Source: an uncultured Acidobacteriota bacterium (GTDB taxonomy: Bacteria > Acidobacteriota > Vicinamibacteria > Vicinamibacterales > UBA2999). From it: DNA of 64,000 nt. Position 1 is the stretch's first letter. Every line of letters begins with the position of its first letter. The DNA lies in contig CAVUKN010000005.1 of NCBI GenBank assembly GCA_963742105.1, positions 1,775,884 through 1,839,883 of the forward strand, in the 5' to 3' direction. The translations under genes were made by a program, and so were the position numbers. Under the pieces are notes generated by a model. The model ran no database searches and was not told where the DNA came from. It saw only the letters and a list, made by a program, of their open reading frames with translations. Below are positions 8,384 to 57,468 of this stretch, in pieces.

Positions 8384-8553
8384 CATTCTTGAATCGTGAA
8401 TCGTGATTCTTGAATAGGGAATCGGGATTCGGGAATCGGGAATCAGGAATGGTGGCAATCGCGATTTCCTCAGCACCAATCACGAATCAAAATCGCGATT
8501 CACCTAATCACCAATCACCAATCACAAATCAAGAATCAAGAATCACGAATCGC
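8384..8553. repeat. heptad-array element E1 (AATC-core flavour)
   Basis: About 24 consecutive 7-nt units (GAATCGT GAATCGT GATTCTT GAATAGG GAATCGG GATTCGG GAATCGG GAATCAG .. CAATCAC CAATCAC AAATCAA GAATCAA GAATCAC GAATCGC). The outer parts are reverse complements of each other. Palindrome AATCGCGATT occurs at 8457-8466 and 8491-8500. Confidence 0.85.
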
Positions 8554-11368: not shown

Positions 11369-11391
11369 GCGGCGAACGTGGAACGACTCGC

Positions 11392-11675
11392 GGTTCAGGA
11401 GGTGCCGGAGGTGCCGACGGTGCCAGAGGTGCGATTCGGGGGTTCTGAACGTTCAGAACGGGAATCCTGCCGTTCACGGCGGGCGGCGCATGCTCGCCTT
11501 GCGCGCCAGCTGGTTCCCGATGTCGGGTGGTGCGTCGCGGCGCCTGCAGCCGAGCGCCAGGTCGCCGCCTTCTCCACCTCGAACTGAGACGCGCGAACTG
11601 CGAGAACCGAGAGAACCTCGTGCACCCGAGAACCGAACCCGCCAGCACCCCCGGCACCTCCGGCACCCTGTGAAC
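11392..11675. repeat. inverted-repeat element E2 (9-nt unit GGTGCCGNN arms, about 200-nt spacer)
   Basis: Left arm GGTTCAGGAGGTGCCGGAGGTGCCGACGGTGCCAGAGGTGCG (11392-11435). Right arm GCCAGCACCCCCGGCACCTCCGGCACCCTGTGAAC (11641-11675) is its near reverse complement. Internal palindrome GGTTCTGAACGTTCAGAAC. GAACCGA heptads lie at 11600-11640. Confidence 0.75.
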
Positions 11676-12810
11676 GACCCGCCGTTTCCTTCAGGCCCGC
11701 CGCTCTCAGCTCTTTAGGCCCATCCGTGAGAGTACAGGCCACCAGCTCCTCCTCGGTCACGTCGTCGATCGTCATCGTGGCGCCAATCTCGATGGCGATC
11801 ACGAAGTGCAGCCGTCCGTTGACGACCTTCTTGTCCCGGCGGACGGCTTCGAGCACGTCTCCCATCGGAAGATCCAGGACCGGTGGCAAGGGGCCGAGCG
11901 CGGCGATCAGGTGCGCCAGTGCCTCGCGCTCCCGCCCGGCGAGCGCGCCGCGTGCCACAGCCAGATCCGCTGCCGCCAGCATGCCGTAGGCGATCGCTTC
12001 GCCGTGGCGATAGCGCCGGTACTTGGTGACCGCCTCGAGCGCGTGGCCGACGGTGTGCCCGTAATTAAGGATTCGCCGCAGTCCGCTCTCACGCTCGTCC
12101 TTCGACACGACGTCGGCCTTGATACGGCAGGATTCGACGATGGCGGGCACCAGCACGGAGGGGTTGCGATCGAAGACCGCCTTCGTCTGGCTCACCAGCA
12201 GGTCGAACAGCGAGCGGCTCGCGATCATCCCGTATTTCACCACCTCGTAGAGGCCGGACCGGAACTCACGTCGCGGCAGCGTGGCAAGCAGCAGCGGATC
12301 GATGACGACGAGTCGCGGCTGGTGAAAGGCCCCGATCAGGTTCTTGCCGAGCGTGTGGTTCACGCCGACCTTGCCGCCGATGGAGCTGTCCACTTGCGCG
12401 AGCAGCGTCGTCGGCACGTGTACGAGTGTGATCCCGCGCAAGAAGGTCGCTGCGGCGAAACCCGCCGAATCGCCGATCACGCCGCCGCCGATCGCGATGA
12501 GCGCGCTGCCGCGGTCCGCACTAGCCCGGATCAGCGCGTCGTACACCTTCGAGACCGACTGGAGGTTCTTGTAGCGTTCGCCGTCCGGCAGCAGGATTGG
12601 CTCGACTGCGCCAAGCACGCGCTGAAATTGCGCCCCGTGAAGACGCCAGACGTTCTGACTCGATACCACGAATCGCCGCGGCCCGATGCCGTTCAAATCG
12701 AGGAGTGCCGGCAACTGATCGGCGATGCCGTCGCCAATGAGGATCGTCGAAGCGGCTCCGCCCGCCGTGACGTCTACGCGAACTGGATGAGCGGGGTCGA
12801 TGGAGGTCAC
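11395..12810 (-). CDS. aroB: 3-dehydroquinate synthase; the catalytic domain ends near 11715 and the last ~105 codons read through repeat E2
   Basis: A GTG at 12810 is preceded by AGGA. Motifs include LIAIGGGVIGDSAGFAAATFLRGI, QVDSSIGGKVGVN and NYGHTVGHALE. A TAA at 11714-11716 lies one frame off right after ..EELVACTLTDG, so the tail GAGGAGGAGGFGS.. is probably not real. Confidence 0.85.
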   Translation of the reverse strand: MTSIDPAHPVRVDVTAGGAASTILIGDGIADQLPALLDLNGIGPRRFVVSSQNVWRLHGAQFQRVLGAVEPILLPDGERYKNLQSVSKVYDALIRASADRGSALIAIGGGVIGDSAGFAAATFLRGITLVHVPTTLLAQVDSSIGGKVGVNHTLGKNLIGAFHQPRLVVIDPLLLATLPRREFRSGLYEVVKYGMIASRSLFDLLVSQTKAVFDRNPSVLVPAIVESCRIKADVVSKDERESGLRRILNYGHTVGHALEAVTKYRRYRHGEAIAYGMLAAADLAVARGALAGREREALAHLIAALGPLPPVLDLPMGDVLEAVRRDKKVVNGRLHFVIAIEIGATMTIDDVTEEELVACTLTDGPKELRAAGLKETAGRSQGAGGAGGAGGFGSRVHEVLSVLAVRASQFEVEKAATWRSAAGAATHHPTSGTSWRARRACAARRERQDSRSERSEPPNRTSGTVGTSGTS

Positions 12811-12906
12811 GCTGGGCGTCCTGAAAAGAATCCAACTTCCAAGTCCCTCGGACGCTGGAGGTCGAGAGTTTGACCATTGTGCATTGCACGTTGATAGGAT
12901 TACAAC

Positions 12907-14461
12907 GTGCACATCGGCGGCGATTTCCTGGTGATCGGCAGTGGCATCGCCGGTCTGCGTGCCGCCATTTCGCTCGCCGACCGCGGCAACGTGGTCATCC
13001 TCACCAAGGCTGATCCCCGCGAAAGCAACACAGGCTACGCGCAGGGCGGCATCGCCGCTGCCGTCGGCCCGGACGACTCGCCTCAATTGCATGCGCAGGA
13101 CACGCTTGCCGCGGGCGATGGCCTTTGCGTCGCGCCGGCCGTCGAGGTGCTCGTGCACGACGGACCTCGGTACGTCCGCGAACTGCTCGACTGGGGCGCG
13201 TTCGATCGCGATGAACGTGGACAACCGGCGCTCGGACGTGAGGCCGCCCACACGGTCAGGCGCGTGCTGCATGCCCGTGATGCCACCGGCCGCCATATCG
13301 GGCAGGTGCTGTGGGAACGGGTGGCGGCGCGTTCGGGCGTGACGGTGCGCAGCGACGCCGCGGCCCTCTCGCTCGTGATGCAGGACGGCGCCTGCGCTGG
13401 TGCACGATTCCTCGATCGACGCGGTCACGTGCACGACGTGATTGCGCCACGCACACTGATTGCGACAGGTGGCGCCGGGCAGGTATTCCGCGAGACGACC
13501 AACCCGGCGATCGCCACCGGTGACGGAATCGCGATGGCGTACGAAGCCGGCGCTCAGGTCACGGATCTCGAGTTCATCCAGTTTCATCCGACGGCGTTGA
13601 GCGTCCCCGGCGCTCCCCGGTTCCTGCTGTCGGAGGCGCTTCGCGGCGAGGGCGCGCATCTCGTCAACACACAGGGTGAACGCTTCATGACGCGCTACGA
13701 AGAGGCGGGGGAGCTGGCGTCGCGCGACCTGGTGTCGCGCGCCATCGTCAAGGAAGCATTCCGTACTGGCGGGCCGATCTTCCTGACCATGGCGCATCTC
13801 GACCACGCATATGTCCGCAGCCGGTTTCCTACCATCGCGGCAGTCGTGCAAGAGGCCGGTCTCGATCTCGCCACCGATCGCAGTACCGGTCAGTCCGGCG
13901 GCGCATTACAGCATGGGCGGAATCGAGACCGACCTCGACGGCCGGACGTCGATTCCGGGTCTGTTTGCGGCCGGCGAGGCGGCGTGTACCGGAGTGCACG
14001 GCGCCAACCGCCTGGCCAGCAACTCGTTGCTCGAGGGGCTAGTGTTCGGCGCCCGCTCGGCGACGGCGATGGCAGCCGCCATCGAACCAGCCCGCCTGTT
14101 TGCGGAGCTTGCCCCCTTGTGCGCAGCCGATCGGGCGCCCTCTGGCGACCTGCGTGCGCCGGCGCCCGGTGACGTTCGTGATCTCATGTGGCAGCACGTC
14201 GGTCTGGTCCGGACGCGCGACGGATTGGTCGAGGCGAACACAAAGCTGTCCGTCTGGCGGGATGCAACCAGAACCGCTCTGACCGCCAATCCCGGAGACG
14301 ATGGGCTTCGGCGCGTCGCGAGCCTGGTCGCGGTCGGCCATCTCATCGCGCGGGCGGCGCTGCGGCGGGAGGAGAGCCGGGGCGGCCACTTCCGCGCCGA
14401 CTTCCCGAAACGCGACGATATACACTGGAAACGGCACATCGCCGACGCGCTTCGCGCTTAG
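12907..14461 (+). CDS. nadB: L-aspartate oxidase; one frameshift near 13880
   Basis: FAD motif DFLVIGSGIAGLRAA. Also YAQGGIAAA, LEFIQFHPTAL, RFLLSEALRGEGA, then (next frame) VPVSPAAHYSMGGIETD..GLFAAGEAACTGVHGANRLASNSLLEGLVFG. Confidence 0.9.
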
Positions 14462-16410: not shown

Positions 16411-16511
16411 AAACTCCCAACACACGCACTCGACCAACTCCCAACTCCCAATCGGACCCGACCAGCCTTTTGGGAGTTGGGTGAGCGTGAGACCTTGGGA
16501 GTTGGGAGTTG
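16411..16511. repeat. heptad-array hairpin E3 (CTCCCAA/TTGGGAG flavour)
   Basis: AAACTCCCAAC..CCAACTCCCAACTCCCAAT ..loop.. TTGGGAGTTGGG..CCTTGGGAGTTGGGAGTTG. It fills the convergent junction between the lipoprotein gene and tatC. Confidence 0.85.
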
Positions 16512-19400: not shown

Positions 19401-19485
19401 GAAACTCCCAACGGCTGCCGGTGGACCAACTCCCAAATCCCAAACAAGTTGGGAGTTGGACCAGGGTCAATTGGGAGTTGGAAGT
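19401..19485. repeat. heptad-array hairpin E4 (CTCCCAA/TTGGGAG flavour)
   Basis: GAAACTCCCAAC..CCAACTCCCAAATCCCAAACAAGTTGGGAGTTGG..AATTGGGAGTTGGAAG, directly 3' of the S41 peptidase stop. A small related hairpin TTGGGTCCCCAACCCAA follows at about 19519-19535. Confidence 0.8.
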
Positions 19486-24615: not shown

Positions 24616-25731
24616 ATGGCCAACGAGGACAAGGCGACGCGCTATCACCGGCTGCAGCGTCGGGCATCGCTGCTGGCGACGGTGACCGGCGCGGCCCTGC
24701 TGCTGCTGCTTGTGGTCACCGGCGTGTCGGCGGCCATTCGATCCGCCGTCGATCGTTCCACCGGTGGTGCATTCCCGCTGACGGTTATGGCATACGTCGC
24801 CGTGGTGTTCCTCCTGTACGAGCTCACCCAGCTGCCGTTCGCGTACTACCAGGGCGTCGCGCTCGAGCAGCGCTATGGTCTCTCCACCGAAACGCGCCAG
24901 CACTGGTGGATGAACCACGTCAAGGCGGCAGCACTGGGAGTGTCGTTCGCCGCCCTCGCCGCGCTGCTGGTGGTAGCGCTGGTGCGGTGGAGTCCGGAGT
25001 GGTGGTGGGTGATCGCCGCGGCGGCGTTCGTCCTGATTCTGGTCGGCCTGGCGCAACTGGCACCCGTGCTCCTGTTGCCGCTGTTCTACGACGTGAAGCC
25101 GCTCAACCGACCGGAACTCGTCGCGCGGCTGGTCGCGCTTGCCGGGCGGTCAGGCGCGCGTGTGATCGGCGTGTTCGAGTGGAGACTGAGCGACCGTACC
25201 CGCAAGGCCAACGCTGCCCTCACCGGAATCGGTCGAACACGACGCATCCTGCTTTCCGACACCCTTCTTCGCGAGCACTCGGACGAGGAGATCGAGGTGA
25301 TCCTCGCCCACGAACTCGCGCACCATGTCCACCGGGACATCTGGTCGGGAATCGCTCTTGAGACCGTGCTGATTGCGGCCGGGTTCTTTGTCGCCGATCG
25401 GGCCCTGGTCATGATCGATGGATCGTTCGGGCTATCCGGGAAGGGTGACGTGGCGGCGCTACCGCTCCTGCTCCTGGCCGCCGGCGCGGTGTCCGTCGTC
25501 TTCCTGCCGCTCGCCAACGGGCTGTCGCGGGCGCACGAACGCCGGGCCGATCAGTACGCACTGGAGATGACGCGCAATGCAGACGCGTTCGTGACGGCGA
25601 TGAAGCGGCTGGCAGCTCAGAACCTGGCGGAGGAGCAGCCTTCCCCGATTGTCGAATGGCTGCTGCATTCGCATCCATCGACCCGTTCGCGCATAGAGGC
25701 GGCGCGCCGATGGGCGGCAGAGCACTTGTGA
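24616..25731 (+). CDS. M48 family zinc metallopeptidase (Ste24/HtpX-like), membrane-bound
   Basis: Several TM segments, the HEXXH motif in IEVILAHELAHHVHRD, and a downstream ..RRADQYALEM.. region typical of M48. Confidence 0.8.
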   Translation: MANEDKATRYHRLQRRASLLATVTGAALLLLLVVTGVSAAIRSAVDRSTGGAFPLTVMAYVAVVFLLYELTQLPFAYYQGVALEQRYGLSTETRQHWWMNHVKAAALGVSFAALAALLVVALVRWSPEWWWVIAAAAFVLILVGLAQLAPVLLLPLFYDVKPLNRPELVARLVALAGRSGARVIGVFEWRLSDRTRKANAALTGIGRTRRILLSDTLLREHSDEEIEVILAHELAHHVHRDIWSGIALETVLIAAGFFVADRALVMIDGSFGLSGKGDVAALPLLLLAAGAVSVVFLPLANGLSRAHERRADQYALEMTRNADAFVTAMKRLAAQNLAEEQPSPIVEWLLHSHPSTRSRIEAARRWAAEHL

Positions 25732-25839
25732 TTTGCGATTTGTGATTTAGGATTTGCGATCTCTGATCTGTGATTTGAGATTCGAGGCCCGGCAGTGACG
25801 TCTTCACAAATCACAAATCACCAAATCCAATCCAAATTG
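25729..25839. repeat. heptad-array hairpin E5 (TGATTTG/CAAATCA flavour)
   Basis: TGATTTGCGATTTGTGATTTAGGATTTGCGATCTCTGATCTGTGATTTGAGATT ..loop.. CACAAATCACAAATCACCAAATCCAATCCAAATT. It fills the convergent junction between the M48 and cupredoxin-like genes. Confidence 0.85.
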
Positions 25840-30916: not shown

Positions 30917-31322
30917 CTCGGTGGGCAGGACTCAGCGCGTCGGGCGGAGTGCCCACGCCGCTGCGTTGCGATTCTTCCTCGTGAAGGTCCCGGAGGATCT
31001 GCTCGACACGGTCCTGGTGGCCAATCGACTCGTCGAACCGGAATTCCAGCTCCGGCACGCGCCGCAGGGTCAGGATGCTGCCAATCTGTCGTCGCAGGAA
31101 GGGCGTGGCGCGGACCAGCGCCTTGGCGGTTTCCTTGCGCGCCTTCTCGTCGCCAAGCGACGTATAGAAGACGCGCGCCTGCTGGAGATCCGGCGACACT
31201 TTTACCCGCGTCAGGGTGATGAAGCCGATGCCGGGATCATGCACGGCGCCGCGACTCAGCAGCGTGCTGAGTTCGTCGCGGATCTGCTCGCCGACTCGGT
31301 CTGGGCGGTGACCTTGTGCCAT
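30897..31322 (-). CDS. rbfA: ribosome-binding factor A
   Basis: ATG 31322 gives MAQGHRPDRVGEQIRDELSTLLSRGAVHDPGIGFITLTRVKVSPDLQQARVFYT..LRRVPELEFRFD. Overlaps the nrnA start by 20 nt. Confidence 0.9.
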   Translation of the reverse strand: MAQGHRPDRVGEQIRDELSTLLSRGAVHDPGIGFITLTRVKVSPDLQQARVFYTSLGDEKARKETAKALVRATPFLRRQIGSILTLRRVPELEFRFDESIGHQDRVEQILRDLHEEESQRSGVGTPPDALSPAHRDDTNDE

Positions 31323-31325
31323 CGA

Positions 31326-31421
31326 TAACTCCCAACTCCCAAGAACCAACTCCCAAGATTGCCCTCCCGAAACAAGCATTTGGGAGTTGGACACGTATAT
31401 GGGGTTGGGAATTGGGAGTTA
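31326..31421. repeat. heptad-array hairpin E7 (CTCCCAA/TTGGGAG flavour) between infB and rbfA
   Basis: AACTCCCAACTCCCAAGAACCAACTCCCAAG ..loop.. TTTGGGAGTTGG..GGGGTTGGGAATTGGGAGTT. On the mRNA strand the 3' arm ends ..GGGAGUUAUCG-AUG(rbfA). Confidence 0.85.
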
Positions 31422-31427
31422 GCGCCG

Positions 31428-34287
31428 CTAGGCGGTCACAGCGGCGACCTTCTCCATTGCGAACGCCTCGATGACGTCGCCGACCTTGATGTCGTTGAAC
31501 CCGGCCAGCGCGATACCGCACTCGAACCCGGATTTCACTTCCGACACGTCGTCCTTGAAGCGCTTGAGCGAGGCAATCTTGCCTTCGTGGATCACGACGT
31601 TGTCGCGCAGCAGGCGCACCTGCGTGTCGCCGGATCGCTTGATCAGACCGGTCGTGACCATGCAGCCGGCGATCGCGCCGATCTTCGGCACCCGGAATAC
31701 TTCGCGCACCTCCGCGGCCCCGAGGCGCACTTCCTTGAAGGTCGGTTCGAGCAGACCTTCCATCGCCTTCTGGATCTCGTCAGTGACGTTGTAGATGATC
31801 GAGTGCTGGCGGATGTCGACCTGCTCGCGCTCCGCCATCTCCGCCGCATTGCGGTCGGGACGGACGTTGAAGCCGATGATGATGGCGTTGGACGCCGACC
31901 CCAGGAGCACGTCGGACTCGTTGATGGCACCGACGCCTGAGCGGATGATCCGGATCTTCACCTTGTCGTCCGACAGCTTCTGCAGCGTGTCGGCAAGCAC
32001 CTCCGACGACCCCTGCACGTCCGCCTTCACGATGATCGGCAACTCCTTCACGCCGCCTTCGGCAATCTGCTGCTGCAGCGACTCGAGTGTCAGGCGGCCG
32101 CCGCGTGCGCCGAGCGCGCGTTCCTTCGCCTGCGTCTGACGGAACGTGGCGATCTGGCGGGCCTTGGCAGCATCGGCGACCGTCTGGAACTGATCGCCGG
32201 GGCTGGGCAGGCTGGTCAAGCCGAGTACTTCGACCGGCGTCGCCGGGCCGGCCGACCGTCACCGAGCGACCGCGATCGTCGATCAGCGCGCGCACCTTGC
32301 CGACGACTGGTCCGGCAATGAAGTTGTCGCCGACGGTGAGGGTGCCGTCCTGGACCAGGACTGTCGCGACGGGACCACGGCCGCGATCGAGCTTGGCTTC
32401 GAGCACTGCGCCCGATGCGCTCCGTTTCGGGTTCGCCTTCAGCTCGAGGATGTCGGTCGAGAGGAGAATCATCTCGAGCAACTGGTCGAGGTTCTGGCGC
32501 TTCTTGGCCGACACCGGCACCATGACGGTGTTGCCGCCCCAGTCTTCCGGTATCAGGTTCAGTTCGGCGAGCTCACGCTTGACGGTTTCCGGGTTTGCGC
32601 CCGGCTTGTCGATCTTGTTGATCGCCACCACGATCGGCACGTTTGCGGCGCGGGCGTGATCGATCGCTTCCTTCGTCTGCGGCATGACTCCGTCGTCTGC
32701 CGCGACGACGAGGACCACGACGTCGGTGACCTTGGCGCCACGAGCGCGCATCAGAGTGAACGCCGCGTGACCCGGCGTGTCCAGGAAGACGACGTTGCGG
32801 TCGCCAACTTCGACGTGGTAGGCGCCGATGTGCTGCGTGATGCCGCCGGCTTCGCGCTCGGCAACCTTGGTTTCACGGATCGCGTCGAGGAGCGAGGTCT
32901 TGCCGTGGTCGACGTGCCCCATGACCGTGACGACCGGCGCTCGCGTCACCACGTCTTCGGGACGCGATTCATCGCCCTCGGTGGAGACGATTTCCTCCTC
33001 GAAGCTCCGCATTTCGACTTCGGCTCCGAATTCGCGCGCCGTCATCGTGGTGGTGTCGGCGTCGAGCGTCGAGTTGATGGTGACGCGCATGCCCTTCATG
33101 AGCAGCTTGCCGAGCACGTCCTTCACGCGAACGTCGAGCTTGTCGGCCAGGTCCTTGACCGTCATGCCCTCTGCCAGGGTGATGGTGCGGCTGATCGGCG
33201 GCGGCGCCGCCGGCGCGGCAGGCATACTCGGCGCTGAGGGACGTTCCCGGCGGGTCTGCGTCGGGCGCTGACCGGGCCTGTGCTGCTGGCCCATCGGCGG
33301 GCGCTGGCCGAACGGCGGGCGCTGGCCGGGCGGGCCCGGCCGGGCGGACATCGGCTGGTTCGGTCGGACCGGCTGCGACGGCAGCGGTCGCGGCCCGCCG
33401 AGCATGCCCGGAGTTGTCGGACGCGGCGGTGCGCCATATCCCGGCCGCCCCGCGGGCGGACGAGCACCGGCAGGAATTGGCCGGGCCGGGGCACCCGTTG
33501 TGGCCGGGCGCGCAGACGCCGGTTGCGCCTGGGGGGCCTGCACCATTCGCGGCTGCGTCACGGCCGGGCGCTTCGCCGGGGCCAGCGGACGGGCGGGCGG
33601 CGGCGGTGCATTGGGATCCTCGACGCGAAGCCGTAGCGTGGGCGGCACGAAACGCCCGCTCGGCGGCGGGGGCGGTTGAACTGCGGGTGACGCAGGCGCA
33701 GACTTCTCGACTTCGGCCGGTTCGGTTGCAACGGACACAGGGGCGATTTCTTCCTCGACGGGTGTGGCGGCGACCGGCTCCGGCGTTTCCACCGGTGCGG
33801 GTGCCTCGATGGTATGCGGTTCCGGAGCTGGCGCCTCGACCACGGCAACGGGCTCCGGTGCCTGCACTTCCTCGACAACTGGAGGCTGAGGCGGAGCTTC
33901 GACCTGTTCCACGACGGGCGCCGGCGCAGCGGCGACCGCCCCCGCTTCATCGGGATGCACTACGGGTCTGACGGTCTTGACAAGGCGAGGGGGACCGAGC
34001 TGCGGGGCGGCCGGCTTCGTCGGCTCGGCCTTCTTGACCAGCGTCGGCTTCTTGCCGCCGGTGGCCTTGGCGGGCGCGTGATGGTGCTCGGCGAACATGT
34101 CGCCGCCCGGTAGTGCAATGTTGCGCTGGCGGGCGACGCGCTCGACGAACGACCGCGCGACGACCTCTTCGAGCGTGCTCGATGCGCTCTTCAGCTCGAT
34201 TCCGTGATCGCGCTTCAGCAGCGCCAGCACTTCCTGGCTCGTGGTGTCGAGCAGCTCCGCGACCTTGTAAATCCGAACCGTTGCCAA
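31428..34287 (-). CDS. infB: translation initiation factor IF-2; one frameshift near 32225
   Basis: TTG 34287 is preceded by AAGGA. N-terminus [13 protein letters not shown].., then a Pro/Ala-rich linker. G domain: [25 protein letters not shown] and NKIDK. After ..[11 protein letters not shown] the reading continues in ORF 31428..32219 (..[40 protein letters not shown]). Confidence 0.95.
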
Positions 34288-35562: not shown

Positions 35563-35650
35563 ATTCGTGATTCTTGATTCTTGATTCGTGAATGACGCGC
35601 CGGTGTCTCTCGTCCGGTAATCAAGAATCACGACTCAAACATCACGAATC
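35563..35650. repeat. heptad-array hairpin E9 (GATTCTT/AAGAATC flavour) between rimP and nusA
   Basis: TTCGTGATTCTTGATTCTTGATTCGTGAATG ..loop.. GTAATCAAGAATCACGACTCAAACATCACGAATC. Confidence 0.8.
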
Positions 35651-37790: not shown

Positions 37791-39213
<1,423 letters not shown>

Positions 39214-39221
39214 CCGTCACG

Positions 39222-39312
39222 CAAAAACAACCACGAAGTGCACGAAGGTACGAAGACCTGAATATTTCTCCTGTCCTTCGTCCCTTCGTGGGCTTCGTGG
39301 TTGGTTTTTCGT
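39222..39312. repeat. repeat-array hairpin E10 (CACGAAG/CTTCGTG flavour)
   Basis: CAAAAACAACCACGAAGTGCACGAAGGTACGAAG ..loop.. CTTCGTCCCTTCGTGGGCTTCGTGGTTGGTTTTTCG. It fills the convergent junction between asnS and the isomerase gene. Confidence 0.85.
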
Positions 39313-39320
39313 ACTCCAAA

Positions 39321-40176
39321 TCAGTACGTGACGAACGTCTTCTCCAGGCGTTCGCGCGCCTTCGCAATTCTCTTCAACACGTCGACCGGCTGGGCCCCGT
39401 TGCTGCCGACTTCGAACATCAGCGCACCGTCGTAGCCGATCTTCTGCGTCGCCATCATCGCTTCGTCCCAGTTGATGCGTGCCGGCGTACGGGACGAGGT
39501 GGTCGTCTCGCTTGCCGTTGTTGTCGTGCACGTGGGTGGTCCAGAGGTGGCCTGAAACGGTTTCGACCGCTTCGGCGACGTCGGTCATGAGGTGCGCGTG
39601 ACCGTAGTCGAGGCAGATCCCGACGTCCACGCCCTCGAGCTGTTCCTCGATAGTGTCCACCAGGCCGGCCGCACCGGACAGCGGGTTGGGCATCACCTCG
39701 AGCGCGACGCGAACGTTGACGCGGGTGGCGGCTTCGACGATGTCGATCACGCTCCGGCGTGCGGCGTCCGGTTGATTGTCGCCGGGCGGGATCTTCTGTC
39801 CGGTCGGGATGCCGACGTGCACCACAAGGAACTCGAAGGGGATGGAGCCGGCAATGGCCAGCGCCGCTTCTGCTTCGGACACGGCCGCCTTCCGTCGCGT
39901 CTCGTCGCCAGACGCGATGGAAAACGATCCGACCCACTCGCCGCCGCGCATCGCCTCCATCACCGGTGCGTGCACCGAGTGGAGGGTCACTCGCGTGTCG
40001 CCGAGCCACTCGCGCAGCTCAGCGATCGCGTCCGGGTTGCGGTAATCGAAATGGGAGCGCGTCGCGAAGAGCTCGATCAGCTCGAAACCGTGCGCCGCAA
40101 GGTCGACCACGTCCTCACGCGTGAGGCGGCGGTCGTGGAAGAGATGCGTCGAGACACCGAATCCGCGGTCCGCCAC
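39321..40176 (-). CDS. sugar phosphate isomerase/epimerase (xylose-isomerase-like TIM barrel); one frameshift near 39470
   Basis: GFGVSTHLFHDRRLTREDVVDLAAHGFELIELFATRSHFD.., FLVVHVG, ALEVMPN and THVHDN. The tail lies in another frame: INWDEAMMATQKIGYDGALMFEV..RERLEKTFVTY* (stop 39321-39323). The start GTG 40176 is tentative. Confidence 0.6.
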
Positions 40177-40191
40177 GCTCCCGATTCTAGC

Positions 40192-40463
40192 TGTTCGCGC
40201 TTTTGCGTTCCCAGTTCTCAGTTCGTGTTCAGGTTCGGCTGACGTGCCTACTTGCTGTTGGCTCGAGCAACAGTCTGTGATGCTGTCGGCGCCTCGGACC
40301 TCGGACCTCGGACCTCGGACCTCGAACTGCGAATTGCGAAGGACGAACGACCAACGACGAACTTCGAATTCCGAACTTCGAACTCCGAATTCCGAACTTC
40401 GAACTTCGAACTTCGAACCGAACCTGAACACGAACCGAGAAGCGAGAACCGAGAAGTGCGAAC
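40192..40463. repeat. compound nested heptad-array element E11 (about 270 bp)
   Basis: Outer arms CAGTTCTCAGTTCGTGTTCAGGTTCGG (40212-40238) and CCGAACCTGAACACGAACCGAGAAGCGAGAACC (from 40418). Small hairpin CTGTTG-GCTCGAG-CAACAG at 40255-40273. Inner arms (CCTCGGA)x4..CGAATTGCGAAGG versus (CGAACTT/CGAATTC)x8. Confidence 0.9.
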
Positions 40464-40472
40464 AGGCTCTGA

Positions 40473-41543
40473 TTACCGCAACTCGTCGAGATGCTCGGCG
40501 AGCAAGTTCCTGCAGACGGGCGAAGCGCGGGTAGCGCTCGAGGTTGGCGCGGACGTACCGCAGCGTTCGCGGCATGTACTGGATGTAAACGGTGTTTCCG
40601 CGGGTCAAGGTCTGGTAGCCGAACGTGCCGAGCGCCTTGAGGTTGCGCTGCACCGCCATCAGGTCGAATCGGCGGCGGAATGCATCGATGTCCGGCCGCG
40701 CCGTCGCCGGTCCGCCCGGCTTCGCCGTCCGGGATGGCGAGTCGTTCGGTGCGAGGAAGACTGCGATCAGCTGCTCGACCTGCGTCTCGGTGAAGTCGAC
40801 GTAGGAGTCGCGCAGCAGCGACACGAGGTCGTAGGTGTCCGGCCCCATGCGCGCATCCTGGAAGTCGATGATGTACAGCCGCCCGTCGTGCAGCATCAGG
40901 TTGCGGCTGTGATAATCGCGATGACAGAGGACGCGCGGTTCAGCCGCCAGTTCTTCGGCGATGACCGCGAACTCCTCGCCCAGCGCGGCGCGTTCGCGGG
41001 CATCCAGCGTCGCGCCTCGATAGCCCTCGAGGAAGTGCTTCACGAAGAACTGCAGCTCCCACGTCAGCTTCTCGACGTCGAAGGCGATCCGGTACGGCAG
41101 GTACTCGTTGGACGACAGTTCGGCGCCCCGCTGCTGCAGCGTCTGGATCAGCGCGACTGCCTCGCGATACAGCGCGTCGTGTTCGCTCGACGAGGCCGCC
41201 CCGAGGTGGGCCTGCAGCGTGACGTCGCCGAGGTCCTCCAGCGCGATGACGCCGAGCTCGTTGGAGTGGCCGGTAATCCGCGGCACCGGGACCGGCATCG
41301 CCGCCAGCAGCCGCGCCACGTTGACGAATGGCAGCGACTCGAACTCGATGGGCCCTCGGATGGACGGCAATCACCTGCGACGGTTCGTCGCGGAGCAGCA
41401 CGCGGAAGTAGCGCCGGTCGGACGCGTCGCCCGTCAGCGGAACGACCCGGGCCCCGCGGGCGTTGAGACCGGTCTCGTTCAGATACCGATCGATGCGGGC
41501 TCGGACGTCGGTCGTTGTCAGCTGTCGATTGTTCTGCAGTCAT
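40473..41543 (-). CDS. phosphotransferase-family sugar kinase, AmgK-like (anomeric MurNAc/GlcNAc kinase family); at least 3 frameshifts near 41500, 41355 and 40510
   Basis: ..VRARIDRYLNETGL..VVPLTGDASDRRYFRVLL.., catalytic loop LCHRDYHSRNLML, then IIDFQDARMGPDTYDLVSLLRDSY. The true C-terminus ..RLQELLAEHLDELR* is reached one frame off (TAA 40473-40475). Confidence 0.6.
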
Positions 41544-41556
41544 CAGGGCCAAGAGA

Positions 41557-42505
41557 TTACAGCGGCGCGACGGCGATGTCCCCGATCTGCTTTTCGCCGT
41601 CGACACCGTTGCCCGTGGCGCGACGTAGCGTCACGCCGTGCCACGACGTATCTGCAGGCACGCGAACGCCATCGGTCACGATTGTGTCTCGCAGCACCGC
41701 GCCCGCCTCGACCACCACGTCGTCCCACAGAATCGACCGATGCAGCTGGGCAGTAGGGGCGATCCGGCACTTCGCCCCGACGTCCATCGACGACACCCTC
41801 GCGAGCCGCCGATCAGCAGTGACGAATCGAGATAGTCGGCAGGCGTACCGATATCGAGAAATTCAGCGTCGCAGCGCCATGCGCGCACGGCGCCGGGACG
41901 CTGGGCGATGAGAGCGGGGTAGAGCGCCGCAACGGACTCGTACGGCGTGTCCGGCGGAACCGAATCGAAGGCAGACGCCTCCACGACCTGAAGCCCGATG
42001 AAGTGGTACGACGGCTGACCGGTGCCACGCAGAACGCGACCGGTGATGTAGCCGGCGCCATCCACCGCGAGGCCGTCGTACTTGTCGGGCTCGCTGTTGG
42101 GCACGACCGCCAGTGTTGCCAGCGCATCATGGTCCCGATGCGTCGGCAACGAGCGCACCGACGTCCGCGTCCGTCAGCGTGTCGCCATTCACGACGAGAA
42201 ACGGTGACGTCCCGAGCAGCGATCGTGCGCGCCGCGGTCCGCCCGCTGATCCGAGCAGCGGAGTCTCCCACGAATAGCGCACGCGCAATCCCAGCGTGCT
42301 GCCGTCACCGAGCCGTCGCGTCAGTGATCTCGGGCCGATGGTGCAGGTTGAGCACGGCCTCACGAACGCCTGCCGCCGCAAGTTTTCGCAGGATCCGTTC
42401 GGCGATCGCGATCCCGGCGACGGGGACAGCGCCCTTCGCACGGACCAGAGACAGGGGACGCAGCCGGGTCGCGTGGCCGGCGGTCAGCACGAGTGCGGGA
42501 AGCAC
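41557..42505 (-). CDS. sugar-1-phosphate nucleotidylyltransferase, MurU-like; 3 frameshifts near 42310, 42140 and 41800
   Basis: MLPALVLTAGHATRLRPLSLVRAKGAVPVAG (G-x-G-T-R-x-x-P-like), ..SWETPLLGSAGGP.., FLVVNGDTLTD, ..PDKYDGLAVD.. and FLDIGTPADYL, with a left-handed-helix-like tail. It ends 14 nt upstream of the kinase ATG. Confidence 0.6.
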
Positions 42506-44153: not shown

Positions 44154-44185
44154 CAGAGCCTCCGAACCATACGAGCCTAACAATT

Positions 44186-44290
44186 AACGAATTGATGAAT
44201 CTACGAATTTCCGACATTCAGAGGACCGGAGGGGCCCGGCGGGCGCACGCCCGAAAGGTGGCCGTTCGAAAATCCGTCAATTCGTCAATC
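44186..44290. repeat. weak inverted repeat E15 (ACGAATTGA core)
   Basis: AACGAATTGATGAATCTACGAATTTCC (44186-44212) versus GAAAATCCGTCAATTCGTCAATC (44268-44290). The arms match only partially, and the right arm overlaps the stop of the M24 peptidase gene. Confidence 0.35.
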
Positions 44291-47750: not shown

Positions 47751-48149
47751 ATGGCAGACACGTTGCAGCGACCACCGACCATGCAGACCGTCGCCGTGAC
47801 CTCCACCGGCCTGACGCCACGCACCGCGGCGACGCTGACGTATCTCTCGTGGTGGGTCACCGGGGTGCTGTTCTGGCTGGTCGAGCGAGACGATCGGTTC
47901 GTGCGTTTTCACGCCGCGCAGGCGGTGGTGGCGTTCGGCGCGATCTCGGTGATGATCGCCGTCTTCCTCGGGCTGGCGGCCGCGTCGCTCTCGTTCCTGC
48001 CGGCGGCGTTCAACCTGTTTCTCGCGGCGGCGGGCGTGACGTGGCTGGGCGGGATGGTGCTCTGGCTGACGACGATGTGGAAAGCGGCGAACGGGGAAGC
48101 GTTTCGCCTCCCGCTCGCCGCTGACTGGGCCGACAGGATCAATTCATGA
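47751..48149 (+). CDS. DUF4870-like small membrane protein
   Basis: ..ATLTYLSWWVTGVLFWLVERDDRFVRFHAAQAVVAFG.. plus two further TM segments. This pattern is typical of the DUF4870 family. Confidence 0.5.
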   Translation: MADTLQRPPTMQTVAVTSTGLTPRTAATLTYLSWWVTGVLFWLVERDDRFVRFHAAQAVVAFGAISVMIAVFLGLAAASLSFLPAAFNLFLAAAGVTWLGGMVLWLTTMWKAANGEAFRLPLAADWADRINS

Positions 48150-48227
48150 TTTGTGATTTGTGATTTGCGATTTGAACGGGCCTCGCCGTGCCTCCAATCA
48201 CAAATCACAAATCACAAATCGCAAATG
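48147..48227. repeat. heptad-array hairpin E12 (TGATTTG/CAAATCA flavour)
   Basis: TGATTTGTGATTTGTGATTTGCGATTTG ..loop.. CAATCACAAATCACAAATCACAAATCGCAAATG. It fills the convergent junction 48149/48230. Confidence 0.85.
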
Positions 48228-50527: not shown

Positions 50528-50620
50528 TGCAATCGTGAATCGTGAATCGTGGTCGCGAATCGAATCGAATCACGGAGCTCCGTCCCGACATTCACGATTC
50601 ACGATTCACCATTCACGATT
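50528..50620. repeat. heptad-array hairpin E13 (GAATCGT/ACGATTC flavour)
   Basis: GCAATCGTGAATCGTGAATCGTGGTCGCGAATCGAATCGAATCAC ..loop.. CATTCACGATTCACGATTCACCATTCACGATTGG. Confidence 0.85.
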
Positions 50621-52067
50621 GGTTTCACCGTCTCTGAAACTCCGGTCCGCCGATCGACGGTCGCCTGCTGCGGCCCCGCAATCCGCTGCGCGATGTTCAT
50701 CCGCGCCACGAGGCGCGCCGGCCGAGACCCAGGTGTCCGCCGTGTCGTCGTAGCCCGTCGGCGGCTGGCACATGTAGAGCGGCATGCCCATCTGCATCAG
50801 CGCGTTCAGCAGCTGGCGACCGTCGCCCGGCACGTCGCGGCCGGTCGCCCGCATGGCGCTGGCGAGGAACTCGAGCGGCGTCTTGACCTTGGCGCCGCGC
50901 GCCGCGAAGAACTCGTCGGACGTGATGATCGTGCTTGACGACTTCGCGCAGGTCGCCGTCGGTGTCGCGGAATTTCTTCGCGGCGCGATCGACGAGCGCC
51001 TTCGGCGGCTCATCGCTGACGAAGCGCTGCGCCAGCTCGAAGGCGATGTGATGCGCGGTCGCCGGATGTCGCGCGACGATGTCGAGGACCTGCTCGCCGT
51101 CCTCGATGCCGCCGCCGGCCTTGATCTTGTGGCCGAGGACGATCTTCTCGCCGGTGTCGTGCAGCATCGGCGCGAACCGGAACTCGCCCTCCTGTACCGC
51201 CCCGGCGCCAGCTGCGGCCTGCCGGCCACGTCGCGCCGGACGGGCTGCCGCCGGTTGACCTCCGGCTGCCTGGTTGGCCGGCGCGATCGTCCAGCCGGTG
51301 AACGCCCGGGCCACTTCGATGATGTCCTTCTGGGTGTAGCCGCCGTCGACGCCGAGCGTGTGCAGTTCGAGCAGTTCGCGGCCGTAGTTCTCGTTGAGGC
51401 CACGGCGGCGCTGCTGGCGCTGCTGGGCCCGGCGGCGGTTGGCGCCACCGCAGCCGCGCTGCACGCTGCCGCTGCAGTTCCTGCTGCCGTTCGGCAGCCG
51501 CCGGATCGGCGCTCAGCCAGTTGTCGAGATAGAAGAGCATCGCCGGGCTCTTGGCCGTCGCCTCGAGCAGGTCGCGGAACTTGCCGAAGACATGCGGACG
51601 GATCGCGTGCCGTTCGTAGTCGGCGATCCATTCGGACGTCCGACCCTTGCCGGCGAAGACGTTGAAGTGGTTGAACCAGAAGTCGACGAGCTGTTCTTCG
51701 AGCTGACGTTCGCTGTAGATGGCACGGATGACCTTTTCGGCGCTCAAGGCCTGCACCGACTGCGCGGCCCCAGCGCCGCGCCTCCATCTGGTCGGCGAAA
51801 TTGCTCGGGCCGTGCCGGCTGTTCCGGCAGCCGCGCCTTCAGCGCGCTGTCGTCGATGCCGTCCGGATGCAGCTGCTGGTCGATCCAGGTCGACAGCCCG
51901 ATCTGCTGAACCCGCTCGACGTCGCCCGGTCGCGGACCGTAGGCCAGACGGTTGAGTGCGTGCTCGACAGCCTCTCGGTCTTTCGGGACACCGGCGGCGC
52001 CGAGCGTCGACCCGGCCAGCACCGCGCCGAGCAGCAACGCTCCCGCCAGGATTCCTCGCTGCGTCAT
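50599..52067 (-). CDS. DUF1800 domain protein; at least 4 frameshifts, 3' end uncertain
   Basis: ATG 52067 is preceded by GAGGGTGG. Signal [89 protein letters not shown]-like [11 protein letters not shown] and MCQPPTGY. The partner DUF1501 gene lies immediately downstream. Confidence 0.7.
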
Positions 52068-57362: not shown

Positions 57363-57468
57363 GTGTGTTCACGCTTCTCCGTTCTTCGTTCTCGGTTCGT
57401 GTTCAGGTTCGGTTCCAGAACCGAACGTGAACACGAACGGAGAAGAGAGAACCAAGAAGCGTGAACGG
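57363..57468. repeat. heptad-array hairpin E14 (GTTCGTG-TTCAGGT flavour, shared with the outer arms of E11)
   Basis: GTGTGTTCACGCTTCTCCGTTCTTCGTTCTCGGTTCGTGTTCAGGTTCGGTTCC|AGAACCGAACGTGAACACGAACGGAGAAGAGAGAACCAAGAAGCGTGAACGG. It is nearly palindromic about 57416 and fills the convergent junction 57360/57485. Confidence 0.9.

Follow-up and report, generated by a model that had tools for sequence, protein, structure and literature searches.

Among the closest known systems to the element reported here are the intervening sequences (IVSs) of bacterial 23S rRNA genes. 23S rRNA IVSs with an S23p (PF05635) ORF are described for Coxiella burnetii and Leptospira, ORF-less IVSs also exist, and IVSs in general are regarded as selfish (PMC4990558; Ralph and McClelland, 1993, cited there). 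In the Coxiella IVS, terminal inverted repeats pair into a stem whose loop holds the S23p ORF, and at the site cut by RNase III there are heptameric repeats that vary in copy number (PMC4990558). The GGGAATC and GGGGA(T/C)T heptamers of Xanthomonas and Nostoc are 89-93% intergenic, lie a mean of 28 nt from the upstream ORF, and form 70-75 convergent inverted pairs per genome, i.e., potential stem-loops, with repeat numbers that vary among related species (Rehm et al., 2015; PMC4692102). The TAACTGA repeats of Beggiatoaceae sit just upstream of start codons (PMC4679880). REP/REPIN and TIR-repeat families are tied to RAYT/TIRYT tyrosine transposases, among which is a TIRYT group specific to Acidobacteria (PMC3116915; PMC3733652). 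Inverted heptanucleotide arrays have long been noticed in many bacterial genomes, including those of Xanthomonas and Nostoc, and are unexplained. Here we describe a heptad-rich hairpin between genes for an AmgK-like kinase and a sugar-phosphate isomerase in a 64,000-nt stretch of Vicinamibacterales DNA (hereafter, the window).

Anatomy of the element and its gene junction

All checkable details of the original prediction, i.e., an element of ~270 bp with its arms, core, small perfect hairpin, exact heptads, and stop-free frame, were present in the sequence (Table 1). The inverted arms are 48 nt each, 83% complementary, and 179 nt apart, and both matched the profile of the family described below (40464-40415, minus strand, E = 1.2e-13; 40190-40239, plus strand, E = 9e-11). 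The 18-nt core said to be common to the outer arms and a second hairpin (E14) was indeed found exactly at 40221-40238 (+), 40418-40435 (-), and 57395-57412 (+), with a one-mismatch copy at 57421-57438 (-), and the arms are homologous to E14. At up to three mismatches, the core occurs at five sites in the window versus 0.08 expected. A metagenome contig (L192) holds an ortholog of the 57.4-kb copy, its flank being 77% identical over 994 nt.

Table 1. Features of the kinase/isomerase junction and related hairpins in the window.
Feature	Position	Strand	Basis or remark
Whole element, 275 bp	40191-40465		Between kinase stop and isomerase start
Terminal arm, 5' in sense (minus-strand) transcript	40418..40465	(-)	Pairs with 40191-40238
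Terminal arm, 3' in sense transcript	40191..40238	(-)	Includes second core copy, 40221-40238
18-nt conserved core GTTCGTGTTCAGGTTCGG, one of two copies	40418..40435	(-)	Exact match
In-register array of 18 heptads	40292..40417	(-)	One register and orientation; TRF detection and unit parsing
Four exact TCCGAGG (= CCTCGGA) units	40292..40324	(-)	In register with remaining array
Unique interior with small perfect hairpin CTGTTG-GCTCGAG-CAACAG (40255-40273)	40239..40291	none	Direct reading
True TAA stop of AmgK-like kinase	40473..40475	(-)	Frame ends ..LLAEHLDELR*; 7 nt upstream of element
-10-like box TAGAAT	40184..40189	(-)	1 nt past element, 7 nt upstream of putative isomerase GTG (40176-40174)
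Separate heptad hairpin, CACGAAG/CTTCGTG units	39219..39312	none	Arms 37 nt, 86% complementary
Second family copy (E14), simple hairpin, 8 nt between cores	57367..57466	none	Core and arm-profile matches

The 5' arm is itself built on heptads, with TTC spacings of 7, 7, 7, 7, 6, 6, and 5, and this periodicity is carried on in the adjoining array, whose GTTCGNN-type heptads are in phase with the arm. The array comprises 18 heptads, a count that is uncertain given the indel errors of the assembly: TTCGAAG (three times), TTCGGAA, TTCGGAG, TTCGAAG, TTCGGAA, TTCGAAG, TTCGTCG, TTGGTCG, TTCGTCC, TTCGCAA, TTCGCAG, TTCGAGG, and TCCGAGG (four times). TRF called 4.7 copies of CCTCGGA at 100% identity (40292-40324), then ~13.7 CGAACNN units (40323-40418). 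Hence the four exact CCTCGGA units stood as predicted, but they do not oppose a second set of CGAACTT/CGAATTC units, all being part of a single in-register array. The four TCCGAGG units are a T-to-C variant of TTCGAGG that was probably amplified recently. The array is one-sided, and it is self-complementary because TTCGAA, a palindrome, supplies the pairing partner. GTTCGAA resembles a tRNA T-loop, and GANTC sites are present in other heptads.

Two further claims did not hold. The element had been called the largest copy, but the longest hairpin element in the window, with arm repeats that are 9-mers, spans 305 nt at 11382-11686. It had also been called a compound, nested hairpin, but a variable heptad interior between conserved arms is the usual layout of the family, and no second inserted element is present. 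The separate heptad hairpin fills the convergent gap between the isomerase and an aminoacyl-tRNA synthetase (aaRS) gene, at a distance of 8 nt to the true isomerase stop (39323-39321) and of 5 nt to that of the aaRS gene (39211-39213).

Period 7 was the sole enriched tandem period in the window, and period-7 tracts are otherwise seen roughly once every 10 kb; across the Vicinamibacterales, such tracts have many different units. An estimate from crude GC3-based gene calling, which placed half of the period-7 tracts inside ORFs, was judged unreliable since stop-free repeats extend ORFs. An 818-aa aroB read-through lies at 11.4 kb, and GGGAATC units of the Xanthomonas type are present at 8411-8452.

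No Rfam family matched the whole window at the gathering threshold or 39150-40600 at E up to 1; spurious miRNA-like matches fell on the neighboring hairpin only. Rfam likewise reported no rRNA at the element, which lies between two protein-coding genes, outside of 23S rRNA helix 25/45. No PF05635 ORF was found in the window by hmmsearch.

The 717-aa ORF of the original prediction (39217..41370, minus strand) exists and includes the peptide ..FEVRSSEFGVRSSEFEVRRWSF.., and it joins kinase and isomerase in appearance only. It is a reading-frame artifact, open because heptads without stop triplets read through in all frames, and the window element encodes nothing. The kinase stop was correctly placed in another frame, but the element is not the source of the frame problem, which traces to an apparent 1-nt insertion near 40517 that is most likely an assembly error. 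Relative to the locus of another Vicinamibacterales species (L002, an independent MAG), a 2.3-kb stretch of the window holds three single-base insertions, near 41356, 40517, and 39477, and the aaRS gene is split in the window. By inspection, the 3' end of the kinase showed a GC3 collapse in the read-through frame.

Comparison with relatives upheld the view that the element is an intergenic spacer rather than a linker. At 72 of 72 orthologous junctions, an in-frame stop closes the kinase after a conserved C-terminus, PRFARLRELLAEHL(D/E)ELR*, and the isomerase starts on its own beyond a spacer of 1-260 nt; none is fused. A strong hairpin is optional at this site, with z below -2 in only 24 of the 59 relatives whose spacer is at least 45 nt. 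L002 has an element at the same junction with GTTCGGG units instead of GTTCGAA, some relatives have one-armed arrays (L039, L041, and L049), and other lineages have GC-rich or REP-like hairpins. A TAnAAT box occupies the equivalent place in at least 44 of the 72 relatives, junctions devoid of any element included. A promoter scan did not find a full sigma-70 consensus.

On folding, the element gave RNA z-scores of -6.5 (sense, minus strand) and -8.4 (plus strand), and none of 100 shuffles was as stable. The sense-strand fold has 26 consecutive pairs around the core; the 18-nt core plus four flanking pairs makes up an uninterrupted helix of ~22 bp, and a helix of at least this length is a prerequisite for excision by RNase III. 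In the family alignment the core columns are the most invariant and are always paired. Conservation of the arms looks more like a sequence constraint than a pairing constraint, since overall arm pairing (85.4%) barely exceeded that of shuffled controls (84.7 ± 0.5%) and the variable dinucleotides between conserved blocks are mostly non-complementary between arms. Double-sided changes were in weak excess (50 cells vs. 36 ± 5 in shuffles), pairing being otherwise explained by column composition. As a test for the RNA strand, G-U-type and A-C-type mismatches showed no asymmetry (111 vs. 120). There were no terminator-like sites within 39000-41600 and no U-tract, the flank past the stem reading CUAGAAUCGGGAGC. 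A/T-rich flanks were considered as a terminator signature and rejected, as adjacent stop codons explain them better. A preferred orientation to the upstream gene ("TTC arm first") was also dropped, as a palindrome reads the same from both sides.

The dispersed family and its gene-bearing members

The element belongs to a lineage-restricted family of hairpin cassettes that are dispersed in the Vicinamibacterales (Acidobacteriota), and within it represents an ORF-less ("miniature") copy. This GTTC-core heptad hairpin family was defined in the present analysis, and at least 120 soil metagenome contigs contained its core. The conserved, inverted arms (~47 nt; consensus gtcGTTCACgCTTCTCggTTCTCgcTTCTCgGTTCGTGTTCAGGTTCGG) consist of TTC-phased heptads and the irregular 18-nt core. 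The interior is hypervariable, covers a continuous length range of 6-179 nt, and starts with GTTCGNN heptad arrays (e.g., L002, L095, L120, and L152). Between loci only the arms (~47-50 nt) match, at 85-98% identity, while flanks are unrelated and the neighbors are diverse housekeeping genes. The arm profile found four arms in the window, three in L002, and none in the loci of 79 other relatives (887 kb in total). Orthologous and paralogous copies differ in heptad unit variants and unit number, and two copies at an orthologous purA site (L083 and L152) have common arms around unrelated interiors of 104 and 178 nt. Most copies start 0-16 nt past a stop codon, and the gene context was convergent for 13, co-directional for 17, and divergent for 5; in L152, the copy abuts a gene start, the purA ATG lying 4 nt past the arm. 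A TAnAAT box comes shortly after the end of many copies. GTAG-type REPs are nested inside some GTTC elements (L132 and L148).

A link to gene-bearing cassettes was missed by the original prediction. Full-length members of the family carry, between the same GTTC arms, a gene for a four-helix-bundle protein belonging to the PF05635/TIGR02436 family (S23p, Avd-like). The arm-flanked genes matched PF05635 with E-values of 2.6e-15 and 8.7e-13 and also matched TIGR02436, and the closest solved structure to the cassette protein is Xanthomonas XCC0516 (PDB 2GSC). This combination of GTTC arms and PF05635 gene occurs at four genomic sites (L183/L201/L203, L168/L186, L202, and L204), and ORF-less copies outnumber gene-bearing ones by ~43 to 3. 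At the kinase/isomerase junction itself, four relatives from other clades (L024, L205, L207, and L208) hold a PF05635 gene that is flanked by heptad arrays with different unit types. In a small sample, picked from homologues of two queries, all nine independent PF05635 sites lay between inverted heptad (sometimes 8-mer) arrays, that of a marine bacterium with 41% GC included, and each S23p subfamily was accompanied by its own heptad unit. S23p proteins are called at 145-230 aa where stop-free tracts extend ORFs. Judging by the common arms and arrays, the window copy may descend from a full-length cassette; its unique interior showed no similarity to the leader or ORF of full-length members and no S23p gene or leader remnant.

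Signs of transposition were sought directly. Among 35 elements, direct repeats of 2-5 nt at offsets of 0-3 were no more frequent than in permuted flanks, and no recurrent transposase-like neighbor was found within 1.5 kb of ~120 loci. We know of no mobility activity for S23p.

Origin and possible role

We consider it rather likely, with ample room for doubt, that the element is an ORF-less, IVS-like hairpin cassette that was enlarged by slippage and is probably processed as double-stranded RNA; its function and mobility are what we infer. The window copy lies past the stop codon of the kinase and ahead of the -10 box that belongs to the isomerase. Replication slippage may have enlarged its 18-unit heptad microsatellite, with the four identical TCCGAGG units as the presumed latest expansion. 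At the 3' end of the kinase transcript, the arms would pair into a long stem resembling the rRNA IVS stems that are cut by RNase III, and from this likeness the most likely effect would be that the upstream transcript is ended or processed at the stem. The isomerase would then be expressed from its own promoter. It is probable that the family propagates as a selfish cassette or did so in the past; ORF-less copies would relate to S23p-bearing copies as MITEs do to insertion sequences.

An immobile microsatellite hairpin that grew locally from heptanucleotides, in which S23p genes merely land or persist, is an unlikely alternative origin. Heptanucleotide repeats are reported to be the most frequent class of long SSRs in prokaryotes, with slippage given as their cause (Mrazek, 2007, as summarized in PMC4679880; PMC4692102). 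The varied units of period-7 tracts across the Vicinamibacterales, the one-armed arrays, and the failure to find target-site duplications would also fit. Local slippage, however, cannot explain why more than 100 unrelated contexts hold the same non-repetitive ~47-nt arm, irregular 18-nt core included, at 85-98% identity; the same arms also occur with the same protein subfamily at four different sites. If hosts instead selected such hairpins mainly as terminators or REP/BIME-like 3'-end stabilizers, family likeness would reflect convergence or recruitment, and copies just past stop codons, the excess of convergent and co-directional over divergent contexts, and the hairpins of other lineages at this junction would be expected. 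We regard this as quite improbable, as the element lacks a U-tract and a terminator consensus, most relatives have a weak hairpin or none, some copies lie against gene starts, pairing is no better conserved than sequence, and the family is lineage-restricted.

The pattern of constraint also bears on action at the DNA level, with the heptad-phased arms as putative arrays of binding sites for a sequence-specific protein such as an S23p pentamer or a ribbon-helix-helix or LexA-like protein. Each heptad has five conserved and two free positions in both arms, the free positions are not kept complementary, the equal mismatch classes give no sign of selection on a single RNA strand, each S23p subfamily has its own unit, and the core contains one GTTC-N7-GTTC, which we take to be the LexA box type of Acidobacterium and Alphaproteobacteria. 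Yet ORF-less copies far outnumber gene-bearing ones, and a palindrome reads the same on both strands, so that strand symmetry is expected anyway; we give this proposal a low probability. A collapsed or chimeric low-complexity tract is far less probable still. The three 1-nt insertions and the split aaRS gene do indicate an error-prone assembly in which the unit number may be off, but the same architecture recurs at the orthologous junction of the independent MAG and in independent metagenome contigs, more than 100 in number, that come from other projects. Finally, the single minus-strand frame open from 41370 to 39217 might suggest a genuine kinase-isomerase fusion with a repeat linker. Comparative data already refute this, leaving it a negligible chance: no relative is fused, the kinase C-terminus and in-frame stop are conserved, the read-through frame shows a GC3 collapse, a conserved -10 box and start belong to the isomerase itself, and the open frame depends on three apparent frameshift errors.

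Returning to the IVS-like cassette, a broader and distinctly tentative extension is that the inverted heptad arrays of Xanthomonas, Nostoc, and the Vicinamibacterales are the cis-acting arms of widespread mobile hairpin cassettes. Autonomous members would encode a pentameric S23p, each subfamily recognizing its own unit, ORF-less copies would be MITE-like, and the 23S rRNA IVS would be the special case in which a cassette had settled in rRNA. This follow-up joins the excess of heptanucleotide repeats, the selfish 23S rRNA IVSs, and the S23p/TIGR02436 family, which has no known function and counts Avd, the DGR accessory protein, among its relatives. Should this connection be borne out, binding or mobilization of its cognate heptad hairpin by S23p becomes directly testable, and the cassettes would count as a novel kind of non-autonomous element that carries its own fast-evolving microsatellite. 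For annotation, such stop-free tracts of heptads mislead gene callers into fusing or lengthening ORFs, and masking is needed in the abundant soil Acidobacteria.

Comparison with known systems

The GTTC family shares with cyanobacterial STRR and Beggiatoaceae TAACTGA heptamers intergenic tandem heptanucleotide arrays whose origin is unexplained, whereas those repeats are mostly direct arrays of one fixed unit, with no terminal arms described (PMC4679880). Xanthomonas and Nostoc heptamers are likewise tandem heptads with ~5 conserved and two free positions, and the window element has the tandem 7-nt units, intergenic position, and nearby upstream stop that mark heptameric SSRs of the Xanthomonas type; these often form convergent pairs, and the array here is one-sided. 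They differ in being G-rich and read as G-quadruplex formers, and neither conserved non-repetitive terminal arms nor a link to S23p was described for them (PMC4692102). G3 tracts are absent from the units TTCGAAG and TCCGAGG, which thus lack the hallmark of a G-quadruplex.

Like REP/REPINs, the family is extragenic, forms inverted hairpin doublets as well as singlets, showed no target-site duplications, and was amplified in a lineage-specific manner. REP units, however, are palindromes of 20-40 nt, whereas the GTTC arms are 47 nt and not self-palindromic. Their terminus is G(T/C)C-GTTCAC, with CGTC in a minority of copies only, and a GTAG or clear CGTC head is missing; a heptad microsatellite makes up the interior, and the gene found with the arms is PF05635 rather than a Y1 transposase. 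The window element has the terminal inverted repeats and small size of a MITE. Like the Correia elements of Neisseria, which are RNase III substrates, the family is small, non-autonomous, intergenic, presumably co-transcribed, and far commoner than its gene-bearing relative. Unlike MITEs, it showed no target-site duplication, and the gene-bearing relative has no recognized transposase.

The window element differs from 23S rRNA IVSs in lying within an mRNA intergenic spacer instead of helix 25/45, in having no ORF, and in its much longer array (18 units); the family differs in its ~47-nt, heptad-phased arms and its presence at more than 100 sites, and RNase III cleavage is proposed here by analogy only. 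In both, inverted terminal repeats form a long stem, flanked in the window element by heptameric repeats, full-length copies carry a four-helix-bundle gene in the loop, and, as in the Coxiella IVS, tandem heptamers of variable number lie at the base of the stem.

Architecture and dispersal of the element

The element forms an imperfect hairpin (window 40191-40465) with outer arms of 48 nt that are 83% complementary and are separated by 179 nt. Each of the two arms contains an exact copy of the 18-mer GTTCGTGTTCAGGTTCGG. A further exact copy is found in the left arm of another hairpin (57367-57466), and a copy with one mismatch in that hairpin's right arm; allowing up to 3 mismatches, the window has 5 sites vs. 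0.08 expected by chance. Together with the small hairpin and the repeat units (CCTCGGA x4.7 at 100% identity, then CGAACNN units), these features bear out the original prediction's description of the sequence. As RNA, the element is far more stably folded than shuffled sequence, with z = -6.5 for the minus strand, which is sense for both flanking genes, and z = -8.4 for the plus strand, and the element's core extended to ~22 uninterrupted base pairs in the window fold.

On the sense strand, the TTC spacing through the arm is 7, 7, 7, 7, 6, 6, 5, and the series runs on into one 18-heptad array from 40417 down to 40292. Since all 18 heptads sit in a single register, the CCTCGGA units are a recently amplified T-to-C variant of the adjoining unit. 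No complementary array lies on the opposite side of the element's interior, where there is instead a 53-nt unique stretch with the small hairpin. The proposed hairpin within a hairpin needs revision, as the apparent inner hairpin arises because TTCGAA is a palindrome.

A metagenome scan found the 18-mer in at least 120 contigs, with soil and rhizosphere as the main sources. Between loci, the match is confined to the arms (85-98% identity) and does not extend to the flanks, which are unrelated. The consensus layout of this GTTC family has gtcGTTCACgCTTCTCggTTCTCgcTTCTCgGTTCGTGTTCAGGTTCGG and (TTCGNNN)n on one side of a variable centre and (NNNCGAA)n and a mirror-image arm on the other, with a stop codon often 0-16 nt from the consensus arm. 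Interiors form a continuous size range of 6-179 nt, the extremes noted among ORF-less copies being the 57.4-kb copy (8 nt) and the element itself (179 nt). The family is lineage-restricted: an arm profile matched four arms in the window and three in L002 (a relative's locus) but gave no match in the 79 other relatives' loci. L002 has an element at the kinase-isomerase junction too, with GTTCGGG units in place of GTTCGAA. The contig L192 carries the orthologous counterpart of the 57.4-kb copy. Orthologous sites retain their arms while the interiors change; at an orthologous purA site, the contigs L083 and L152 have arms in common and unrelated interiors (104 and 178 nt).

In 31-43 paired elements, the arms consist of blocks of five conserved positions with two free positions between blocks. 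The free positions are mostly non-complementary (Watson-Crick pairs in 13-22 of 43 elements), and mismatches of G-U type (111) and A-C type (120) are equally frequent. Since paired arm cells barely exceed column shuffles (85.4% vs. 84.7 +/- 0.5%) and the excess of double-sided changes is modest (50 cells vs. 36 +/- 5, a value reached in 1 of 500 shuffles), conservation is clearer for sequence blocks than for pairing itself. Perfect pairing in every family element is seen in one stretch only, the irregular core. In the window (40418-40438) the core contains one GTTC-N7-GTTC (GTTCAGGTTCGGTTC), the direct-repeat LexA box type of Acidobacterium and Alphaproteobacteria; given the GTTC richness, this likeness is probably coincidental. 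A GTAG-type REP-like palindrome (e.g., GGTCCGGCTGAAGCCGGACACTACGTA) is nested in the interiors of two GTTC elements (L132:4300-4430 and L148:230-335) and also fills the kinase-isomerase junction in L034, L050, L063, L046, and L059.

Period 7 is the sole enriched tandem period in both the window and 887 kb of relatives, the latter containing 92 such tracts, 2-13 at each other period from 4 to 13, and 34 at the double period of 14. About 12 further heptad hairpins with other units (GGGAGTT/AACTCCC, GATTTGT/ACAAATC, GAATCGT/ACGATTC, CACGAAG/CTTCGTG) occur in the window at ~1 per 5 kb, most of them 5-40 nt from a stop codon; that at 39219-39312 takes up precisely the space separating the convergent isomerase and aminoacyl-tRNA synthetase genes. 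Several window arrays show a 21-nt, three-unit super-period by TRF.

Features of the element, the window, and related loci
Feature	Location	Units or neighbours
Small perfect hairpin	40255-40273	
Array units 1-8, sense strand		TTCGAAG x3, TTCGGAA, TTCGGAG, TTCGAAG, TTCGGAA, TTCGAAG
Array units 9-14, sense strand		TTCGTCG, TTGGTCG, TTCGTCC, TTCGCAA, TTCGCAG, TTCGAGG
Array units 15-18, sense strand		TCCGAGG x4
Longer compound hairpin, 305 nt	11382-11686	9-mer arms GGAGGTGCC/GGCACCTCC
Further heptad hairpins	8391-8551, 16434-16511, 19426-19460, 25726-25827, 31298-31449, 35563-35649, 39219-39312, 44183-44289, 48142-48226, 50530-50621	
GTTC/S23p site 1		methylmalonyl-CoA mutase and gdh
GTTC/S23p site 2		next to hrcA
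GTTC/S23p site 3		next to gcpE
GTTC/S23p site 4		PBP and xdhC
Leader motif	L183:175-260, L202:1885-1960, L203:1865-1935, L204:1995-2060	
Kinase-isomerase junction	L205	GTCCGTA
Kinase-isomerase junction	L207, L208	GGTCGGT
More distant homologues	L209-211	GGGATTA/TAATCCC
More distant homologues, 41% GC organism, pyrH–frr gap	L212-214	TAGTGAG/CTCACTA
More distant homologues, hisH–hisA gap	L215-216	GCTAGGG/CCCTAGC

The kinase-isomerase junction

The two genes flanking the element are both on the minus strand. Upstream is the gene for an APH-family kinase, whose best NCBIfam matches are AmgK models far under their cut-offs, and downstream that for a xylose-isomerase-like TIM-barrel protein. The 717-aa ORF (39217..41370) is present in the window; its open frame across the element is trivial, since the heptads hold no stop triplet. 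We compared 80 orthologous loci, all from Vicinamibacterales or Acidobacteriota MAGs with kinase identity of at most 75%, in 72 of which the junction could be mapped. Because all 72 have the kinase C-terminus in frame (...LLAEHL(D/E)ELR*), with a median spacer of 87 nt (range 1-260) before a separate isomerase start, the fusion is an artefact, as originally predicted, and the tract a spacer. On the same scale the window spacer is 305 nt (actual distance 296 nt, from TAA 40473-40475 to a putative GTG at 40176-40174). The element, proposed as the largest copy, thus occupies the longest of all these junctions but is not the largest hairpin in the window, the one at 11382-11686 being longer. The termini of that hairpin resemble GTTCA...TGAAC, with GAAC-type heptads inside, and an 818-aa minus-strand ORF (11395..13851) containing an AroB-like gene reads through it, an ORF-extension artefact like the 717-aa ORF.

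A -10-like TAGAAT box (40189-40184) lies 1 nt past the element and 7 nt ahead of the putative GTG. Since 44 or more of the 72 relatives have a TAnAAT box at the equivalent position, element-free junctions included, the two genes look like separate expression units. In loci L001-L080, just upstream of the isomerase, the conserved box precedes a GTT or the start codon by 5-8 nt (e.g., TAGAATTGGAGGTTG, TACAATGAATAGTTC), which points to promoters of a -10-only kind in this lineage, with leaders that are very short or lacking; the box also directly follows the right arm in L168, L183, L201, L203, and L204, and cassettes often end immediately upstream of it. In place of a repeat element, two junctions (L064:6840-7490 and L073:6840-7500) hold an extra gene, whose ~215-aa product has a hydrophobic segment at its N terminus.

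The true kinase stop is reached only past an apparent 1-nt insertion near 40517, and comparison with L002 located two more, near 41356 (kinase) and 39477 (isomerase). Two of the three disrupt the kinase and one the isomerase, and none lies in a long homopolymer. Since the adjoining class II aminoacyl-tRNA synthetase gene (37791-39213) is also split into two overlapping ORFs, the assembly here is probably error-prone, which suggests insertion-biased assembly rather than pseudogenes.

S23p genes between heptad arrays

A few GTTC-family members have long interiors, and those of L183 and L168 (ortholog L186) encode a PF05635 "23S rRNA-intervening sequence protein" (E 2.6e-15 and 8.7e-13) that also matches TIGR02436, "four helix bundle protein"; full-length members thus carry an S23p gene. 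Among solved structures the nearest is X. campestris XCC0516 (PDB 2GSC), and public data contain at least 697 homologues of this subfamily. In all four long-contig contexts (L201-L204), the S23p gene lies between heptad arrays and GTTC-family arms, as the arm profile confirmed. Counting orthologous sites once, identical arms and one protein subfamily recur at four different sites, and gene and arms therefore travel together. Among metagenome loci, ORF-less copies outnumber gene-bearing ones by ~43 to 3.

In L183, L168, and L201-L204 the S23p ORFs extend 3' into the CGAAC heptad array, which accounts for the variable tails with 7-aa periodicity (..EPRTPNPEH..) and the called lengths of 145-230 aa, against a ~110-aa domain, among proteins P0001-P0120. 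Changes in heptad number would shift the S23p frame and stop. The leaders of full-length members repeat a (G)AACTGCGTACA-type motif between the left array and the S23p start, a candidate that could be a promoter or binding site.

L024, another kinase-isomerase ortholog, has a different PF05635 gene at the junction, between GTCCGTA/TACGGAC arrays, and homologues of its protein occur in the same synteny (NTP-transferase, kinase, S23p, isomerase, aminoacyl-tRNA synthetase). Inverted heptad arrays, occasionally 8-mers, lay on both sides in 9/9 independent site/unit combinations with DNA available; period-7 tracts have a background of ~1 per 10 kb. The sample is small but fully consistent, and the broader S23p–heptad link that it supports is the part worth follow-up.

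Origin, possible role, and known counterparts

The element is non-coding and a member of a dispersed family with conserved arms. The heptad array that makes up its interior evolves rapidly and may have enlarged via slippage. If its role were simply that of a terminator, a U-tract would be expected and is absent; moreover, strong spacer structure is seen in just 24 of the 59 relatives whose spacers are 45 nt or longer, and some copies abut start codons. We propose instead that the transcribed stem might be processed like an rRNA IVS, parting the kinase message from that of the isomerase, which would have its own promoter. The family may be, or have been, mobile, with ORF-less copies perhaps relating to S23p-bearing ones as MITEs do to insertion sequences. 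Classical transposition accords poorly with the elements, at which no target-site duplication was detectable, and with the diverse, housekeeping genes beside them, among which no recurrent transposase was found.

Our literature search returned no paper tying PF05635 genes to heptad arrays more generally, and the sole described precedent found was the 23S rRNA IVS of Coxiella burnetii, in which a 28-bp terminal inverted-repeat stem is cut by RNase III, the loop contains an S23p ORF, and strains differ in how many GACAGAT heptamers they have at the 5' cut site (PMC4990558). In Xanthomonas, GGGAATC heptamer repeats form convergent pairs near upstream stop codons and were read as G-quadruplex formers, with no reference to S23p (PMC4692102); the GGGAATC/GGGATTC units at window 8411-8452 are the heptamer of these abundant inverted pairs. 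The element is a variant, itself new, of known kinds, namely IVS-like hairpins and heptamer-repeat pairs.
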